From an uncultured Mycoplasma sp. (GTDB lineage: Bacteria; Bacillota_I; Bacilli_A; RF39; UBA660), in assembly GCA_964491445.1 (NCBI GenBank), contig CAZBFY010000001.1, forward strand, positions 1-31,467: 31,467 nt of DNA, given 5' to 3'. Each line of letters begins with the position of its first letter. Positions within the stretch are counted from its first letter, which is position 1. The position numbers and the translations under genes were made by a program. This document shows positions 1,577 through 6,246 of the stretch, in pieces. The notes under the pieces are model-generated. The model ran no database searches. It saw only the letters and a list, made by a program, of their open reading frames with translations, and was not told the DNA's origin.

Positions 1577-2122
1577 ATGCAAATAATATTAATTGGTGGA
1601 AAAGCTAGAAGTGGTAAAGATACAATAGCAGATATTATGATAAATGAATTAAAAGAGCAAGATAAGAAAGTAGCAAGACTTCAAGTAGGTCAATATATAA
1701 AGTATTATGCGACTAAATATTTTGGTTGGGATGGTAGTGAAGAGTCTAAGCCTAGAGATTTATTAAATAAGCTTGGAACAGATATAATAAGAAATAAGAT
1801 AGATCCTGATTTTCATATAGATAGGTTAATTCAAGATATAAAAGTTCTTTCTTATTTTTATGATATTTTTGTTATATCAGATATTCGTTTTCCAGTTGAA
1901 ATAGAGAAGACTTGTGATAGTTTTGATAATGTAATTACTATTAAGATGAAAAGAGAAAGTGATGAGTTAAATGATGTTCAAAAGAAGCATGTTTCTGAGA
2001 CTATTTTAGATAATTATGATGGTTTTGATTATGTTATAGATAATAATGGTACTCTTGATGAATTAGAGGAAAAGGCTAAGGGTATATTAACAGAGATAGG
2101 TGATTTGGATGAAAGAGTTTAA
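1577..2122 (+). CDS. P-loop nucleotide kinase, deoxynucleoside-monophosphate-kinase-like (phage dNMP kinase / PMVK fold)
   Basis: GGKARSGKDT Walker A; R-x-LL-x-x-LGTD-x-x-R, ISDIRF and HxSE...FDYVIDNNGTL motifs. Confidence 0.65.
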   Translation: MQIILIGGKARSGKDTIADIMINELKEQDKKVARLQVGQYIKYYATKYFGWDGSEESKPRDLLNKLGTDIIRNKIDPDFHIDRLIQDIKVLSYFYDIFVISDIRFPVEIEKTCDSFDNVITIKMKRESDELNDVQKKHVSETILDNYDGFDYVIDNNGTLDELEEKAKGILTEIGDLDERV

Positions 2123-3851
2123 AGCAAATGAATTGAAAAGGGAGTATATTGAGTTTTTTAAGACTAAGGGGCATACTGAAATAGAGAGTGCTTCTTTAAT
2201 ACCTGAGGATAATTCTTCTGTATTATTTACAATAGCAGGTATGCAACCTTTAATACCTTATCTTTTGGGTAAGCATCATTCTAGTGGGTCTAGGCTTGTT
2301 GATAGTCAAAAGTGTATAAGAACAAAAGATATAGATGAAATAGGGGATAATTCTCATTTAACTTTTTTTGAGATGTTAGGTAATTGGAGTCTTGGGGATT
2401 ATTTTAAAGAAGAGTCTATTGAGTATAGTTATGAGTTTTTGACTAAGCATTTAATGATACCTAATTCTAAGCTTGCAGTAACTGTATTTAAGGGTGATGA
2501 TAAGGTTGCTAAAGATGTAGTAAGTGCTAGTAAATGGGAAGAGCTTGGTATTTTAAAAGATAATATATTTTATTTAGGAAAAGAAGATAATTGGTGGTGT
2601 GCTGGAGAAGAGGGTCCATGTGGTCCTGATACTGAAATATTTTATATATTTGATAAAGAAAAGTGTTCTGATAATTGTTCTCCTGCTTGTAGTTGTGGGC
2701 GTTATATGGAGATTTGGAATAATGTTTTTATGGAATATAATAAAGTAAAAGATGATTTGATTCCTCTTAGTCAAAAGAATGTAGATACTGGTATGGGTCT
2801 TGAGAGAATTATTACTGTTTCACAAAGAAAAGATAGTGTTTATGATACTGATGTTTTTGAAAATACTATGAAAAAGATTAATGAACTTTCTAAAGTAGAT
2901 AATCTTGAGAGTAAAAGAATAGTAGCAGATCATTTAAGGGCAGCTTCGATGATAATAAATGATGGTGGTTTGCCTAGTAATGTTAATGAGGGTTATATTT
3001 TAAGGAGATTAATAAGAAGAAGTATTAGGCATATGAGAAAGTTAAAGATAGATACTAGTTTAATTAATGATATAGTATTGTCAGTACTTCTTGATTTGAA
3101 TGAACAAATTGGTAATTTAGATGATAAAAAAATAATTTCTGTCATAAATGAAGAAGCAAATAAATTTTTAAAGACTATTGCAAAAGGTTTTAAAAGAATA
3201 ATGGAAGAGATAGAGAAACGTGGTAGTTTAATACCAGGGGAAATAGCTTTTAGGCTTTATGATACTTATGGGTTTCCTCCAGAACTTACTGATGAGATAG
3301 CTAGGGAACATGGTTTAAGTGTTGATATGGATGGTTTTAATAAATTATTTAAAGAACATCAAGAAAAGAGTAGACAGGGTGCGGAGATTAAGTTTAAAGG
3401 TGGTTTAAAGAAAAATGGTGAGATGGAAACTAAGTATCATACTGCTACTCATTTATTAAATAGGGCTTTAAAGGATGTTTTAGGATCTCATGTTCATCAA
3501 AAGGGATCAAATATAACAGAAGAAAGATTAAGATTTGATTTTTCTCATCCTGAGAAGGTTTCAAAAGAAGATTTACAAAAAGTAGAAGATATAGTAAACG
3601 AAAAAATACAAGAAGATTTAAAAGTAACATATGAGGTTATGAGTAAAGAAGATGCTATAAAAACAGGAGCAGAAGCTATGTTTATAGATAGGTATGATGA
3701 TGAAGTTAAAGTATATTCTATAGGAAATTATTCTAAAGAGATATGTGGTGGACCACATGTTAATAGTACTAAGAGTTTAGGACATTTTAAGATTAAAAAA
3801 GAAGAGTCTTCATCAAGTGGTGTAAGAAGAATAAAAGCAATACTTGAATAA
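2109..3851 (+). CDS. alaS: Alanine--tRNA ligase, short form lacking C-Ala domain
   Basis: Motifs SVLFTIAGMQP, HLTFFEMLGNWS, DTGMGLER, ADHLR, LYDTYGFP, editing-domain HTATHLL and CGGPH; ends at GVRRIKAILE. Start ATG 2109 after GGTGA. Confidence 0.97.
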   Translation: MKEFKANELKREYIEFFKTKGHTEIESASLIPEDNSSVLFTIAGMQPLIPYLLGKHHSSGSRLVDSQKCIRTKDIDEIGDNSHLTFFEMLGNWSLGDYFKEESIEYSYEFLTKHLMIPNSKLAVTVFKGDDKVAKDVVSASKWEELGILKDNIFYLGKEDNWWCAGEEGPCGPDTEIFYIFDKEKCSDNCSPACSCGRYMEIWNNVFMEYNKVKDDLIPLSQKNVDTGMGLERIITVSQRKDSVYDTDVFENTMKKINELSKVDNLESKRIVADHLRAASMIINDGGLPSNVNEGYILRRLIRRSIRHMRKLKIDTSLINDIVLSVLLDLNEQIGNLDDKKIISVINEEANKFLKTIAKGFKRIMEEIEKRGSLIPGEIAFRLYDTYGFPPELTDEIAREHGLSVDMDGFNKLFKEHQEKSRQGAEIKFKGGLKKNGEMETKYHTATHLLNRALKDVLGSHVHQKGSNITEERLRFDFSHPEKVSKEDLQKVEDIVNEKIQEDLKVTYEVMSKEDAIKTGAEAMFIDRYDDEVKVYSIGNYSKEICGGPHVNSTKSLGHFKIKKEESSSSGVRRIKAILE

Positions 3852-3908: not shown

Positions 3909-4439
3909 ATGAAAAGTAAAACCTCTGGAAAAAAAGATATTCCTTTTAAGAATTATATTGTGTTAGGAGTTATTATAATAGTGACTTTGCTTGTATCATT
4001 ATATATTTTCTCATGGTATAGACAGTATAATGATAATAAGATTTCAAAGCCAATAATAACTGAAACTTTAAGAGAAGTAGAGTATGATAATTTACCTAAT
4101 GTATTACAAGAGAGAGATGTTTTAGTTATGTATATGTGTACTACTAATGAGGATATATGTAGAAAGTTTGAGAAGAAGTTTTCTGAGTATATAAAAGATA
4201 ATAATTTAACTGATGAGATTATATATTTAAATTTAGGGTATGTAAGTGATGAAAATAGTCTTTTAGATAAGGTTTATTTGAATTATAAAAGTGATGATTT
4301 AGTGAAGAAAGTTTATACTTATCCAACTCTTTTAATATTTAATCAAGGTAAAATAGTAGATGTTTTAAGTTCTAGTAGTAAGAATAAAGTTGATATAAAG
4401 CAAGTTGATGAGTTTTTAGAGGGTTATGAGTTATGGTAA
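3909..4439 (+). CDS. Membrane-anchored thioredoxin-fold protein (DUF6568 / bacteriocin-transport-accessory-like)
   Basis: Single N-terminal TM helix, C-x6-C at the CxxC position (MCTTNEDIC) and cis-Pro-type YPTLLIFNQGKIVD motif. Start ATG 3909 preferred to the ORF-track start 3876. Confidence 0.55.
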   Translation: MKSKTSGKKDIPFKNYIVLGVIIIVTLLVSLYIFSWYRQYNDNKISKPIITETLREVEYDNLPNVLQERDVLVMYMCTTNEDICRKFEKKFSEYIKDNNLTDEIIYLNLGYVSDENSLLDKVYLNYKSDDLVKKVYTYPTLLIFNQGKIVDVLSSSSKNKVDIKQVDEFLEGYELW

Positions 4440-4948
4440 ATATAGTACTTTATGAACCAGAAATACCACAGAATACTGGTAATATAATGAGGACATGTGT
4501 TGCTACTAATACTATGCTTCATTTAATAAAGCCTTTAGGTTTTTCTTTAGATGAGAAAAGTATAAAAAGAAGTGGTGCTAATTATATAGATAAGTTAAAT
4601 TATAAGGTCTATGAAGATTATGATCATTTTAAAAGAGAGAATAAAGGAACTTATTATTATTTTACTAGATATGGTAAGAAGCCACATAGTGATTTTGATT
4701 ATAGTAATAAAGAGGATAATATATATTTAATTTTTGGTAGAGAATCTAGTGGTATTGATAAGAAAATATTAAAGGGTAATTTAGATACTTGTATTAGGAT
4801 ACCTATGTCAGAGGATGTAAGAAGTCTTAATTTATCTAACTGTGTTGCTATAGTTTTATATGAAGTTTTAAGACAACAAGATTATAATGATTTGTTAAGA
4901 TATGAGCCTCATAAGGGTAAAGATTTTTTAGAAGAGTTAGATATATGA
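4433..4948 (+). CDS. trmL: tRNA (cytidine(34)-2'-O)-methyltransferase, SPOUT family
   Basis: LYEPEIPQNTGNIMRTC, LIFGRESSG and RSLNLSN motifs. Confidence 0.95.
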   Translation: MVNIVLYEPEIPQNTGNIMRTCVATNTMLHLIKPLGFSLDEKSIKRSGANYIDKLNYKVYEDYDHFKRENKGTYYYFTRYGKKPHSDFDYSNKEDNIYLIFGRESSGIDKKILKGNLDTCIRIPMSEDVRSLNLSNCVAIVLYEVLRQQDYNDLLRYEPHKGKDFLEELDI

Positions 4949-5032
4949 TTAGTTTTTGTAAAAGAAAAAGTAGTATTAATGATTTGTAAGAATAGATGAA
5001 GTTTGATATACCGAAATTCAAAATAAAAAGAA

Positions 5033-5061
5033 TTGACATTTTGTAAGATTTATAGTAAAAT
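5033..5061 (+). promoter_or_regulatory. Sigma-A promoter P1 of putative antisense sRNA
   Basis: TTGACA (5033-5038), 17 bp, TAAAAT (5056-5061); no + strand ORF downstream. Confidence 0.75.
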
Positions 5062-5084
5062 ACAGAAACAACGAAAAAAAAGCC

Positions 5085-5113
5085 TTGAATTATGCTTCTT
5101 AAGTTGTTATAAT
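5085..5113 (+). promoter_or_regulatory. Sigma-A promoter P2 (extended -10) of putative antisense sRNA
   Basis: TTGAAT (5085-5090), 17 bp, TATAAT (5108-5113) preceded by TG-n. Confidence 0.75.
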
Positions 5114-5119
5114 TTATTT

Positions 5120-5290
5120 AGAGAAGTTTGTTTTTCTCGTAAGTTCCAATAAGTATATTTAAATAAATATTTGAATATACTAAAAAAAGAGATATGCTAA
5201 TTTGCCAGTTAGTACTTATCTCTGTTCTCTGTAATTAATTTTTTGTGATTAGAAAAGTACCACTCGTGTTGAGTTGGTACTTTTCTTAGT
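5120..5290 (+). ncRNA. Putative antisense antitoxin sRNA (type I TA-like)
   Basis: Strong promoters upstream, no ORF, ends at hairpin 5251-5286, overlaps the 3' ~100 nt of the convergent peptide mRNA. Ends are inferred. Confidence 0.5.
5251..5286. terminator. Strong, potentially bidirectional hairpin
   Basis: agaaaagtacca-ctcgtgttgagt-tggtacttttct: 12-bp perfect outer stem plus ctc/gag inner pairs. Confidence 0.8.
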
Positions 5291-5354
5291 TCTTTTGTTT
5301 TGTTGCTAGTATAAGCAAAAGAATAACTACGCAAAACGCAATTAATTCGTGCAT
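5286..5354 (-). CDS. Small hydrophobic peptide, candidate type I toxin (22 aa)
   Basis: MHELIAFCVVILLLILATKQKN*: one TM helix plus basic tail. GGAGGTGA RBS upstream; stop codon abuts the hairpin. Start is uncertain (see findings). Confidence 0.55.
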   Translation of the reverse strand: MHELIAFCVVILLLILATKQKN

Positions 5355-5463
5355 TATATTTGTCTTTCCACATTGAACATCACCTCCGTTCTTATTAAAT
5401 TTTAAAAAAACTTGAACAGAGGAAGTACCAACAATTAGCATATCTCTGAAATTAGTATTAGCA

Positions 5464-5492
5464 AAATAATAATATTTAGTCAATAAATTAAA
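5464..5492 (-). promoter_or_regulatory. Putative promoter of the fold-back peptide mRNA
   Basis: Minus strand TTGACT-17 bp-TAATAC (imperfect -10), placing the start site at about 5447, the first base of the inverted repeat. Confidence 0.5.
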
Positions 5493-5668: not shown

Positions 5669-5961
5669 ATGAATAGTATATCTAATACAACTAATATGAC
5701 TATCAGAATAGATAAAGATTTAAAAAAAGTGTTGATAGTTTATTTAAAAAATTAGGAACTAATACTAATTCTGCTATTAATATGTTTTTAAGACAATGTG
5801 ATAGAGAACAAGGGTTAGCTTTTAAACCTACAATGGCACCTGCACCAAATAAAGAGTTAATAACATCTTTACAAGAAATAGAAGACTATAAAAATGGTAA
5901 AGTAGAGTTAGAAAGTTACGAAGACGTTAAGGAGTTAAGAAAGGCTTTAATAGATTATTAA
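5669..5961 (+). pseudogene. RelB/DinJ-family antitoxin, frameshifted (copy 1)
   Basis: MNSISNTTNMTIRIDKDLKK then frameshift in A7 (5722-5728); adding one A gives SVDSLFKKLGTNTNSAINMFLRQCDREQGLAF...ALIDY*. Confidence 0.85.
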
Positions 5962-6246
5962 CGAAAAATGTATTTTAATTTTATCTAGTAATTTTAAAAA
6001 ATAATATAAAAAAGTATCAAAGCAAGGTAAAGACTTAGATAAAATAGATTATGTAATTGATAAATTGGCAAAACGTGAAGAATTAGAGGAAAAATATAAA
6101 GATCATAAATTAATAAACGATAAGTATTATGTAAATTGTATAGAGTGTCATATAGAGCCAGACTGCTATTAGTTTATCAATATGAAGATAATAAACTTAA
6201 TCTTTTATTAGTAGCAACGGGTAGTCATAGTGAAATTTTTAAATAA
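5954..6246 (+). pseudogene. YafQ/RelE-family mRNA interferase, inactivated (copy 1)
   Basis: No ATG at the expected overlap; in-frame TAA at 6002-6004; 1-nt deletion in the PDW codon (gac-tg-cta, ~6205); remnants KDHKL, ECHIEPD, ATGSHSEIF. Confidence 0.85.

Follow-up and report, generated by a model that had tools for sequence, protein, structure and literature searches.

A probable type I toxin-antitoxin-like locus with a fold-back mRNA in the genome of an uncultured gut Bacilli bacterium

Introduction

An apparently empty gap in contig CAZBFY010000001.1 of an uncultured Mycoplasma sp. (assembly GCA_964491445.1) raises the question of whether it holds a small toxin-like gene under the control of an antisense RNA. 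The stretch analyzed here, positions 1 to 31,467 of the contig (31,467 nt), is called the window. A sequence-only reading of the window had proposed a type I toxin-antitoxin (TA)-like locus in the gap, and sequence checks found every element that it described in its place. The phylogenetic range of type I TA systems is considered narrow, in large part because their detection relies on resemblance to systems already known (PMC5367252, PMC12390103).

Results

Fold-Back of the Minus-Strand Unit

As shown in Table 1, the gap contains a 266-nt unit on the minus strand, which encodes a conserved 22-aa membrane-type peptide. The ends of this predicted mRNA and of the predicted antisense RNA were set by promoter and terminator motifs only. 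Folding of the unit gave a minimum free energy of -83 kcal/mol compared to -45.5 ± 4.4 kcal/mol for shuffled sequences (z -8.55), and none of the 200 shuffles was as stable. The profile of the family matched positions 5183-5446 of the window with an E-value of 9e-55.

TABLE 1. Predicted features of the locus, with their positions in the window.
Feature	Position	Strand	Basis or remark
Predicted peptide (toxin-like) mRNA unit, 266 nt	5447-5182	minus	fold z, family profile match, alignment of 16 units
Gene of the 22-aa hydrophobic peptide MHELIAFCVVILLLILATKQKN	5354-5286, including stop codon	minus	homologues, codon-change counts
Weak SD (GAAAG) of the peptide ORF	5364-5368	minus	9 nt before its ATG
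SD-like box SD1 (GAAC-GGAGGUGAU)	5379-5391	minus	followed by out-of-frame AUG1 at 5373-5371
54-codon ORF from AUG1	5209-5373	minus	gene in public annotation, not conserved as protein
5' arm of the end-to-end helix	5414-5447	minus	pairing, covariation, duplex energy
3' arm (5227-5188) plus U7 (5188-5182)	5182-5227	minus	also local hairpin abutting the U tract
Promoter of the peptide mRNA, TTGACT (5483-5478)-18-AATACT (5459-5454), 9/12	5454-5483	minus	predicted start 5447
12-bp perfect hairpin (5251-5262/5275-5286)	5251-5286	either	begins in the stop codon; likely terminator of the antisense RNA
Predicted antisense (antitoxin-like) RNA, ~184 nt, ORF-less	5120-5303	plus	promoter and terminator motifs
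AT-rich hairpin just past the mRNA end	5152-5181	plus	5'-proximal in the antisense RNA
Proximal antisense promoter, TTGAAT-17-TG-TATAAT, 10/12 with TG	5085-5113	plus	predicted start ~5120
Distal antisense promoter, TTGACA-17-TAAAAT, 11/12	5033-5061	plus	predicted start ~5068

Three blocks of 15 perfect bp, 10 bp including a single G-U, and 8 bp join the 34 nt at the start of the unit to its last 40 nt, and U7 follows. This end pairing had been noted in the sequence-only reading, and it was found to covary in relatives. The arm duplex of the window alone reached -41 kcal/mol compared to -12 ± 2.7 kcal/mol for shuffles, and in 15 of 16 loci the arm duplexes ranged from -28 to -48 kcal/mol with z from -6 to -11. 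The terminal 15 bp were 96% paired, with compensatory changes at 10 of the 15 pairs, and the covariation score of the terminal helix was 0.283 compared to 0.181 in shuffles (0 of 500 as high) and at most 0.122 in slid controls. Register shifts in the MAFFT alignment blurred blocks 2 and 3 of this helix, as well as the anti-SD/SD1 helix described below, and per-sequence duplex energies were used there. The arm duplex was stronger on the mRNA strand in 22 of 24 loci, with 71 G-U pairs compared to 35 on the opposite strand. Directly 3' of the 3' arm, all loci carry a U4-8 tract, and in 23 of 24 a local terminator-like hairpin abuts it.

The 22-aa Peptide

The 22-aa membrane peptide of the sequence-only reading was confirmed as an ORF and proved to be conserved across relatives. 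It has ~16 hydrophobic residues in a row and a tail of the form K-x-K-N. Its homologues are small ORFs at 60-75% identity, with lengths of 17-24 aa and usually 20-22 aa; 21 homologues were aligned, and proline was absent from all 21 peptides. GAAAGG or AGGAG lies 7-10 nt ahead of the peptide start in relatives, and the GAAAG of the window is weaker. No type I toxin family in Pfam or NCBIfam matched the ORFs of the window or the family peptides, and the Fst models of these databases gave no match to the family peptides at E-values up to 10.

The pN/pS ratio over all pairs was saturated and uninformative, and codon changes in close pairs were counted instead. The synonymous and non-synonymous changes in the peptide frame were 9/7, 8/3, 6/4, and 5/2, compared to 0-3 synonymous and 4-15 non-synonymous changes in the other two frames. 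The synonymous excess was thus confined to the peptide frame, and second codon positions were the least variable. These counts indicated that the peptide gene is a genuine coding gene under purifying selection.

The Upstream Ribosome-Binding Box

The sequence-only reading had assigned GGAGGUGA to the peptide as its ribosome-binding site. This assignment was wrong, because 25 nt separate the box, GGAGGTGA at 5387-5380, from the downstream ATG of the 22-aa ORF, and the spacing of the box is right only for the out-of-frame ATG at 5373, which it serves. The box (SD1) was found in 26 of 29 loci, while AUG1 was present in 22 and absent in 7 of the 29. The frame offset relative to the peptide was common to 19 of the 22 loci with AUG1 and was kept over seven spacer lengths, and the leader ORF, with lengths of 8 to 56 codons among relatives, often stops at the border of the 3' arm.

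Convergent Promoters and the Predicted Antisense RNA

A scan of the window for promoters was not by itself above chance (8 sites compared to 7.8 expected in DNA of 27% GC), and the promoters of the locus gain weight only because they are conserved in relatives. The minus-strand promoter, with a predicted start on the first base of the transcript as previously noted, has a -10 box that stops 6 nt short of 5447, where the 5' arm begins. In ~20 of 24 relatives, a sigma-70-like promoter scoring 8/12 or more ended 4-9 nt before the 5' arm, and in 17 of the 24 it scored at least 9/12; that of the window, at 9/12, is weaker than its counterparts. On the plus strand, both promoters of the sequence-only reading were found, and the proximal one is conserved: a convergent promoter 21-67 nt past the mRNA end kept its position in 13 of 16 relatives. 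The distal one fared less well, as a second promoter-like site at a comparable distance occurred in only ~5 of the 16.

The same reading had the ORF-less plus-strand RNA end at the 12-bp hairpin. In the family, the hairpin was 91% paired with compensatory changes at 7 of its 12 pairs. The 12 nt past it contained 6.9 T on the antisense strand compared to 2.5 T on the mRNA strand, which is A/C-rich there. These results indicated that the hairpin likely resembles a terminator on the antisense strand only, and it could also terminate part of the mRNA. The predicted antisense RNA is fully complementary to ~120 nt of the mRNA 3' end, and the overlap expected from the motifs, 5182 to ~5300, would take in the stop codon and the last peptide codons. 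Its predicted fold had an energy of -48.2 kcal/mol (z -6.35) with four stem-loops. A hairpin at the position of the AT-rich one, just past the mRNA end, was present in ~11-13 of 16 relatives with differing sequences.

Distribution of the Family

A search of the genome and its relatives for further copies gave ~35 related loci with covarying terminal stems in at least 25 genomes, all from one family of uncultured gut Bacilli, and the locus was single-copy in the genome of the window. Among 150 genera sampled by one genome each, 15 contained the family, often in more than one copy (1-6 copies per genome). Sixteen full units were aligned, 13 further units were confirmed from a genome-wide pattern scan, and a covariance-model search added ~11 more units with peptides; this model covers the 3' module only, and with the 5 pairs given by RNAalifold it is mostly a sequence profile. 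The loci lie in unrelated, non-syntenic contexts between housekeeping genes. Contigs from four DNA runs carried near-identical copies of the locus that differ by one SNP only, and in a diverged contig from run X8 both flanks were ~85-88% identical and the central 170 nt were replaced. That contig differs in the 5' arm at 5426 and 5435, and its 3' arm is a replaced one.

The locus was not found in any of the 16 further species of the genus to which the window belongs, and a DNA search of the 40 nearest genomes returned AT-rich noise only. The region downstream of trmL is unconserved in 15 congeners and therefore offers no orthologous spacer to compare. A decayed dinJ-yafQ pair adjoins the locus, and the surrounding region differs between species. 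A class-level peptide-profile search of ~350 genomes outside the family gave weak matches only, none of them with the RNA architecture, and Rfam returned nothing relevant at the gathering threshold or at E-values up to 10.

Discussion

The conservation of the ~35 loci supports the type I TA-like reading, in which a fold-back mRNA faces a convergent antisense RNA. Judged from these sequence comparisons, the locus is probably a member of an undescribed family of type I TA-like modules of uncultured gut Bacilli.

The distal segment of the 5' arm, CCUCUGUUC (5422-5414), is anti-SD-like and has an alternative pairing with the GAACGGAGG box of -14.9 kcal/mol. In the window and in loci G072a, G082, and G328, the SD box was predicted to be unpaired with a probability of 0.65-0.80 in the full-length fold and of 0.07-0.31 if the 3' arm was absent or masked. 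In G130, G219, G142, and G112 the box was closed in all three states, and a switch is not predicted there. The anti-SD:SD1 duplexes reached -11 to -16 kcal/mol in 12 of 15 loci compared to -5 to -9 kcal/mol in shuffles, and covarying versions were seen in G141 and G138. In the MAFFT alignment the support for this covariation was modest, since a control slid by -1 paired at 71% compared to 70%.

A mechanism can be sketched from these elements. The mRNA would terminate at the local 3' hairpin and U7 and close into the far more stable 5'-3' helix, which would shield both ends. In this closed state the 3' arm would hold the CCUCUGUUC segment, so that the upstream ribosome-binding box would be open. 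The antisense RNA, carrying a copy of the 5' arm, may displace the 5' arm by pairing with ~120 nt at the 3' end of the mRNA; the resulting long duplex would be a likely substrate of RNase III, and the freed CCUCUGUUC would close on GAACGGAGG and shut down ribosome loading. When the antisense RNA drops, the peptide would be made and the membrane damaged or depolarized. We tentatively suggest, as a possibility rather than an expectation, a three-way RNA switch that would be new for type I systems: the 5' hairpin of the mRNA and its complementary 3' terminator hairpin zip into a 33-bp helix, the antitoxin RNA mimics the 5' arm and takes the 3' arm by strand displacement, the released anti-SD closes a decoy or leader ribosome-binding box, and ribosomes on the leader ORF melt the helix, which would couple leader translation to peptide synthesis or mRNA decay.

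Peptide conservation and RNA architecture alone do not show toxicity. The locus could instead be the gene of a conserved small non-toxic membrane protein that serves a housekeeping or regulatory function and happens to have a structured mRNA and a cis-antisense RNA as its controls, with no addiction or toxin module; the position of most loci between housekeeping genes and not on obvious mobile elements, as well as a length of 17-24 aa, near the lower limit of type I toxin sizes, would suit such a gene. However, the distribution is patchy (~10% of genera, 0 of 16 other species of the window's genus), the sites are non-syntenic with copy numbers from 1 to 6, and some copies are decayed: G045d is without a recognizable promoter, G045e has a weak promoter (8/12) and a deleted 5' arm, and G072b is without the SD box. 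Since patchiness, non-synteny, and decay are a better fit to selfish TA-like modules than to a needed membrane protein, we regard a non-toxic gene as unlikely. A par-like arrangement appears improbable for other reasons. There the mRNA would end at the central hairpin as a shared bidirectional terminator, and the downstream arm would be present only in the antisense RNA, which, as a copy of the 5' arm of the mRNA, would act in trans on the SD box and not via the 3' overlap. The A/U-rich flanks on both sides of the hairpin are as in bidirectional terminators, the antisense RNA carries CUCUGUUC, which is complementary to GAACGGAG, and the par and SprA1 systems do interact outside the overlap (PMC8594479, PMC7472228). 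Yet the mRNA strand past the hairpin has only 2.5 T in 12 and is A/C-rich, the U4-8 tract follows the 3' arm in every locus with its abutting hairpin in 23 of 24, and the compensatory changes of the arms and their G-U bias on the mRNA strand are expected only with both arms in one RNA.

The sequence-only reading had itself raised a MITE. A 33-bp inverted repeat with its copies 186 bp apart (first 15 bp perfect) and the presence of several copies in some genomes would be in line with a mobile DNA element, MITE-like or palindromic, in which the repeats work as DNA, but the chance of this is very small: the window's genome has a single copy, neither strand has its conserved promoter within the repeat, selection acts on the peptide, and the pairing uses G-U pairs that would mismatch on the other strand. 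Moreover, the duplicated segment in G045 (~580 bp) is larger than the unit delimited by the repeats, and its own ends carry none. Hardly any credence is left for the 54-aa ORF (5373-5209) as a real product, although GGAGGTGAT lies 5 nt before its ATG as a strong, well-spaced SD and gene callers pick it. It is a singleton without homologues among 5.8 billion proteins, its length varies from relative to relative, and its frame showed 0-1 synonymous compared to 7-15 non-synonymous changes, so that synonymous changes are essentially lacking; with the peptide's second-position T as the last base of its codons, the frame is kept open passively. The 54-aa ORF was rejected as the product of the locus.

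If the type I TA-like reading holds, the lack of any match to toxin or antitoxin models, together with hosts that are uncultured gut Bacilli with genomes of ~1 Mb, would widen the known lineage range of such modules. Public annotation misses the real 22-aa gene and has the unconserved 54-aa ORF instead. The architecture, as modeled, would be a compact example of RNA strand-displacement control, in which the hairpins at the two ends of the mRNA are complementary, the antisense RNA duplicates the 5' arm, and a second SD box serves a leader AUG in a locked frame; the ~35 natural variants are in hand for covariation-guided mutagenesis.

Several known systems share parts of this architecture. As in hok/mok/sok of plasmid R1 (PMC9841398, references in PMC8594479), a 5'-3' fold-back would lock the full-length mRNA, and the upstream overlapping frame with its strong SD recalls mok, although AUG1 is lacking in 7 of 29 loci. 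The differences are that Sok acts at the 5' leader while the antisense RNA predicted here lies at the 3' end, that hok is activated by 3' processing, and that Hok, of ~50 aa and from a Gram-negative lineage, is unrelated to the present peptide. The aapA1/IsoA1 system of Helicobacter pylori likewise combines a long-distance 5'-3' interaction with anti-SD segments that can occlude the SD in the nascent RNA or in alternative structures (PMC6733600), but IsoA1 lies over the ORF as well as the 5' part, the two systems are unrelated in sequence, and a second SD box is lacking in aapA1.

The par locus of Enterococcus faecalis pAD1 (Fst/RNA I-RNA II) and the Fst/Ldr superfamily (PMC7472228) have convergent promoters with a hairpin between the genes, and in par intramolecular helices sequester the mRNA 5' end (5'-UH) and the SD (5'-SL) (PMC7472228). 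The hydrophobic stretch and charged tail of the present peptide are Fst-like; the PXXXG(C) motif of Fst (PMC7472228) is missing, as the peptides are free of proline, and no Fst model matched. The direct repeats DRa and DRb of par are transcribed from opposite strands and pair between molecules, whereas the repeats here are inverted and pair within one, and par shares a bidirectional terminator, whereas the present hairpin is T-rich on one side only and the mRNA appears to read through it.

In Bacillus subtilis, bsrG/SR4, txpA/RatA, bsrE/SR5, and yonT/SR6 are Gram-positive type I TA systems with a 3'-overlapping antitoxin (PMC8594479). The present locus is like the bsrG/SR4 type in its convergent promoters, in a predicted antisense RNA that is located 3' and covers the mRNA from its end to the end of the ORF, and in its small hydrophobic peptide. 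SR4 alters the structure around the SD as well. This remote effect on the SD is of the kind proposed for the present locus. The locus shows no peptide similarity to the TxpA/RatA and BsrE, BsrG, and BsrH families in Pfam or NCBIfam and no Rfam match even at E-values up to 10, and its peptide has 22 aa compared to 38-59 aa in the B. subtilis systems. What further sets it apart from these is that the mRNA ends would form fully complementary hairpins and that the predicted antisense RNA copies the 5' arm.

Elements of the Locus

All the elements described in the sequence-only reading were found in the window (see the table). The minus-strand promoter (TTGACT-18-AATACT) ends 6 nt before 5447, and transcription would start at the first base of the 266-nt unit, the predicted peptide mRNA. 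The first 34 nt of this unit pair with its 3' arm through 15 perfect bp, a block of 10 bp (one G-U) and a block of 8 bp, and seven U follow the 3' arm. The folding energy of the unit was -83 kcal/mol, compared with -45.5 ± 4.4 kcal/mol for dinucleotide shuffles (z -8.55). The unit encloses the 22-codon ORF MHELIAFCVVILLLILATKQKN and a perfect hairpin of 12 bp that begins at the final base of the peptide stop codon. Both plus-strand promoters were present, with no ORF after them. Promoter-like hexamers here were no commoner than in shuffled sequence, so these promoters taken alone prove little.

The assignment of GGAGGTGA as the ribosome-binding site of the peptide had to be revised, since this box sits 25 nt from the ATG of the 22-aa ORF. 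Its spacing is right only for an out-of-frame ATG, the start of a 54-codon ORF. For the peptide itself, a weak SD (GAAAG) is placed 9 nt ahead of the ATG. The middle of the peptide ORF and the -10 region of its promoter share a 20-nt direct repeat (90% identical), which may be due to chance in AT-rich DNA.

Features of the locus and its surroundings in the window
Feature	Position	Strand	Remark
Alanyl-tRNA synthetase ORF	2100-3851	+	
SpoU/TrmL-type methyltransferase gene	4433-4948		Borders the flagged gap on one side
Distal promoter match	5033-5061	+	11/12
Proximal promoter match	5085-5113	+	10/12 with extended -10
Predicted peptide mRNA	5447-5182	-	
5' arm	5447-5414	-	
3' arm	5227-5188	-	
22-codon peptide ORF	5354-5286	-	
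54-aa ORF	5209-5373	-	Starts at the leader ATG (5373)
Stop of the leader ORF	5211-5209	-	TAA
20-nt direct repeat	5307-5326 and 5453-5472		
Decayed dinJ-yafQ pair	5669-6246	+	Borders the gap on the other side (5669-5961 and 6065-6246)
DinJ/RelB-like antitoxin ORF	5669-5755 and 5782-5961	+	
YafQ-family toxin	6065-6246	+	

The window's assembly (27% GC, ~1 Mb, 145 contigs) was derived from an animal gut metagenome. Fifteen other species of the genus each had different DNA downstream of trmL, which identifies the gap as a variable spot. The decayed type II toxin-antitoxin pair directly adjoins the module; its antitoxin ORF is broken into two frames, and its toxin is frameshifted and lacks the N-terminus (Pfam YafQ_toxin, E 6e-15 on X-joined pieces). 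The alanyl-tRNA synthetase ORF of this ~1-Mb genome encodes only 583 aa, comprising the catalytic core and the SAD domain, apparently without the usual C-terminal domain.

Distribution of the Family

DNA searches found no second copy in the window's genome and no copy among the 40 nearest genomes. When the 22-aa peptide was searched in six frames, relatives at 60-75% identity came up, encoded by tiny ORFs in two genomes of another genus, with five copies in one and two in the other. On inspection, the whole module was kept in these relatives, beyond the peptide. Further members came from profile searches of the fetched loci, from 400 genomes of the order searched at the DNA level, from 185,579 species genomes scanned for an exact pattern, and from a covariance-model search. 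The search for further copies with a covarying terminal stem, as the sequence-only reading had proposed, thus yielded ~35 loci in at least 25 genomes, with compensatory changes in the terminal helix. Every member fell within one GTDB family, the carrier records being labeled mostly 'uncultured Bacilli' or 'Tenericutes' at NCBI. With one genome taken per genus, 15 of 150 genera carried the module, at 1 to 6 copies per genome, and no member was found in ~350 genomes of the class's other families. The flanking genes were unrelated housekeeping genes, including dnaE, an aminoacyl-tRNA synthetase gene, gmk, alr, vanY, and cotJB.

In genome G328 (L059, 207-1166), a reverse-transcriptase gene (Pfam RVT_1, E 6e-18) lies immediately upstream of a family member; it is the sole mobile-element-like neighbor among 20 flanking genes scanned. 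The copies in genome G045 (L030 1655-1903, L038 1000-1407, and L040 500-906) lie inside a ~580-bp repeat. Upstream of the peptide promoter, this repeat contains a poly-C/G tract (10-12 bases) as well as an SD-like GAGGAGGAAG that faces divergently oriented genes encoding membrane-anchored proteins, an arrangement that resembles the phase-variable surface-protein promoters of Mollicutes. A 1670-nt contig from metagenome run X8 matched both module flanks (window 5027-5187 and 5358-5484) at ~85-88% identity; the central 170 nt of the module (peptide gene, hairpin, and 3' arm) were replaced in the contig by 166 unlike letters. This replacement suggests a cassette-like exchange of the core between relatives.

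Conserved Structure of the Predicted mRNA

A sigma-70-like promoter (at least 8/12, several 11-12/12) was present in ~20 of 24 loci, its -10 box ending 4-9 nt ahead of where the 5' arm starts. RNAalifold on a 16-sequence alignment recovered the terminal stem and the hairpin, with double changes in 17 of 26 pairs. With the window's fold as the reference structure, the terminal 15 bp were 96% paired, with compensatory changes in 10 of 15, counts whose significance is overstated because related sequences are not independent. The covariation score was 0.283, compared with 0.181 ± 0.010 for shuffles (0/500) and at most 0.122 with a slid partner. Since register shifts in the MAFFT alignment blur the inner helix blocks, the arm duplex of each locus was scored separately; in 15 of 16 loci its energy lay between -28 and -48 kcal/mol (z -6 to -11). 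In 22 of 24 loci the peptide strand gave the stronger duplex; G-U pairs numbered 71 on this strand and 35 on the opposite one, a bias pointing to the RNA of the peptide strand, and not the DNA, as the target of selection. A U4-8 tract directly follows the 3' arm in all loci, and the 3' arm alone also folds into a local hairpin abutting this tract in 23 of 24. The mRNA ends are therefore two mutually complementary hairpins, and the 3' one is an ordinary terminator, which makes termination independent of the long-range helix.

The Predicted Antisense Unit

Both RNAs are predicted, with ends placed from motifs. The hairpin after the stop codon was 91% paired, and 7 of its 12 pairs covary. The 12 nt after it hold 6.9 T on the antisense strand versus 2.5 T on the mRNA strand, so it resembles a terminator only in the direction of the antisense RNA. 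In 13 of 16 loci a convergent promoter is found 21-67 nt past the end of the mRNA, and the sequence between the two diverges. A second, more distal promoter-like site was seen in only ~5 of 16, and the tandem arrangement claimed for the window is thus not general. Just past the mRNA end, ~11-13 of 16 loci have a hairpin of varying sequence, which would fall in the 5'-proximal part of the antisense RNA. The predicted 184-nt antisense RNA of the window forms four stem-loops (z -6.35), the third being a copy of the 5' arm of the mRNA.

Coding Potential and Alternative Readings

The peptides share the consensus M-E-L-[VL]-x-A-F-A-x-I-x-L-L-x-I-I-A-L-K-[QS]-K-[ND]. Synonymous and non-synonymous codon changes between close pairs numbered 9/7, 5/2, 8/3, and 6/4 in the peptide frame, compared with 0-3 and 4-15 in the other two frames. 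The frame of the annotated 54-aa ORF had essentially no synonymous changes, and its product had no homologue among 5.8 billion proteins. This ORF is held in public protein collections as a called gene, in a singleton cluster. Nothing but the second-position T of the peptide codons, on which its own codons end, keeps this frame open; with no conservation as a protein, it reads as a passively open -1 frame over the 22-aa gene, and its annotation is probably an error.

The sequence-only reading had named many copies with target-site duplications as the sign of a MITE, and the inverted arms would fit one. The single copy in the genome, the conserved convergent promoter, the selection on the peptide frame, and the G-U bias toward one RNA strand all speak against this identity, and it is rejected. 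The feature is real, conserved, and unannotated.

The Upstream Ribosome-Binding Box

The upstream box SD1, GGAGGTGAT, matches the anti-SD perfectly over 9 nt. It was found in 26 of 29 loci, where it precedes the peptide start by 18-39 nt. In 22 loci an ATG comes 4-5 nt after the box, and in 19 of these the distance from this ATG to the peptide start was 13, 16, 19, 22, 25, 31, or 34 nt, always 1 mod 3. Twelve of the 22 leader ORFs are 43-56 codons long, with their stop codon within the 3' arm or at its edge. The leader AUG could be a decoy, could couple to peptide translation as in mok, or could serve to melt the helix.

GAAC stands before the box (GAACGGAGG), and the sequence is CCUCUGUUC in the distal 5' arm and GAACAGAG at the start of the 3' arm. 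This gives the anti-SD-like segment two conserved partners. In 12 of 15 loci its duplexes with SD1 had energies between -11 and -16 kcal/mol, versus -5 to -9 for shuffles, and matching variants occur in G141 (CCUCUAUUU with AAAUAGAGG) and G138. Support on the MAFFT alignment was modest, one slid control pairing equally well. In partition-function folds of the window, G072a, G082, and G328, SD1 was predicted 0.65-0.80 unpaired in the full-length RNA and 0.07-0.31 unpaired when the 3' arm was unmade or masked, as by antisense pairing. It was predicted closed in all states in four other members.

Proposed Mechanism and Comparison With Known Systems

The anatomy of the module and its conservation are established at the sequence level. 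We infer that the mRNA would terminate at its local 3' hairpin and U tract and then zip into the far more stable end-to-end helix, shielding both ends. The antisense RNA, from the stronger promoter, would pair with ~120 nt of the mRNA 3' end and displace the 5' arm. The resulting long duplex would be a likely RNase III substrate, as are those of the RatA, SR4, and SR5 systems, and the freed anti-SD would close the upstream box. When antisense RNA is lacking, the peptide would be translated and act on the membrane.

Searches of Pfam, NCBIfam, and Rfam matched the module to no known toxin or antitoxin family. Membership in the 3'-overlap type I, hok, aapA1, or par families is further contradicted by the absence of the PXXXG motif from the peptides, by repeats that are inverted rather than direct, and by a central hairpin that the mRNA appears to read through. 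Judged from sequence, the module most likely belongs to a new family of type I toxin-antitoxin-like systems, whose RNA design is unusual and whose toxicity and neutralization are putative. It is organized like the Gram-positive type I systems whose antitoxins overlap the 3' end (PMC8594479), its fold-back is like those of hok and aapA1 (PMC9841398, PMC6733600), and it recalls the sequestered 5' end and SD of par RNA I (PMC7472228).
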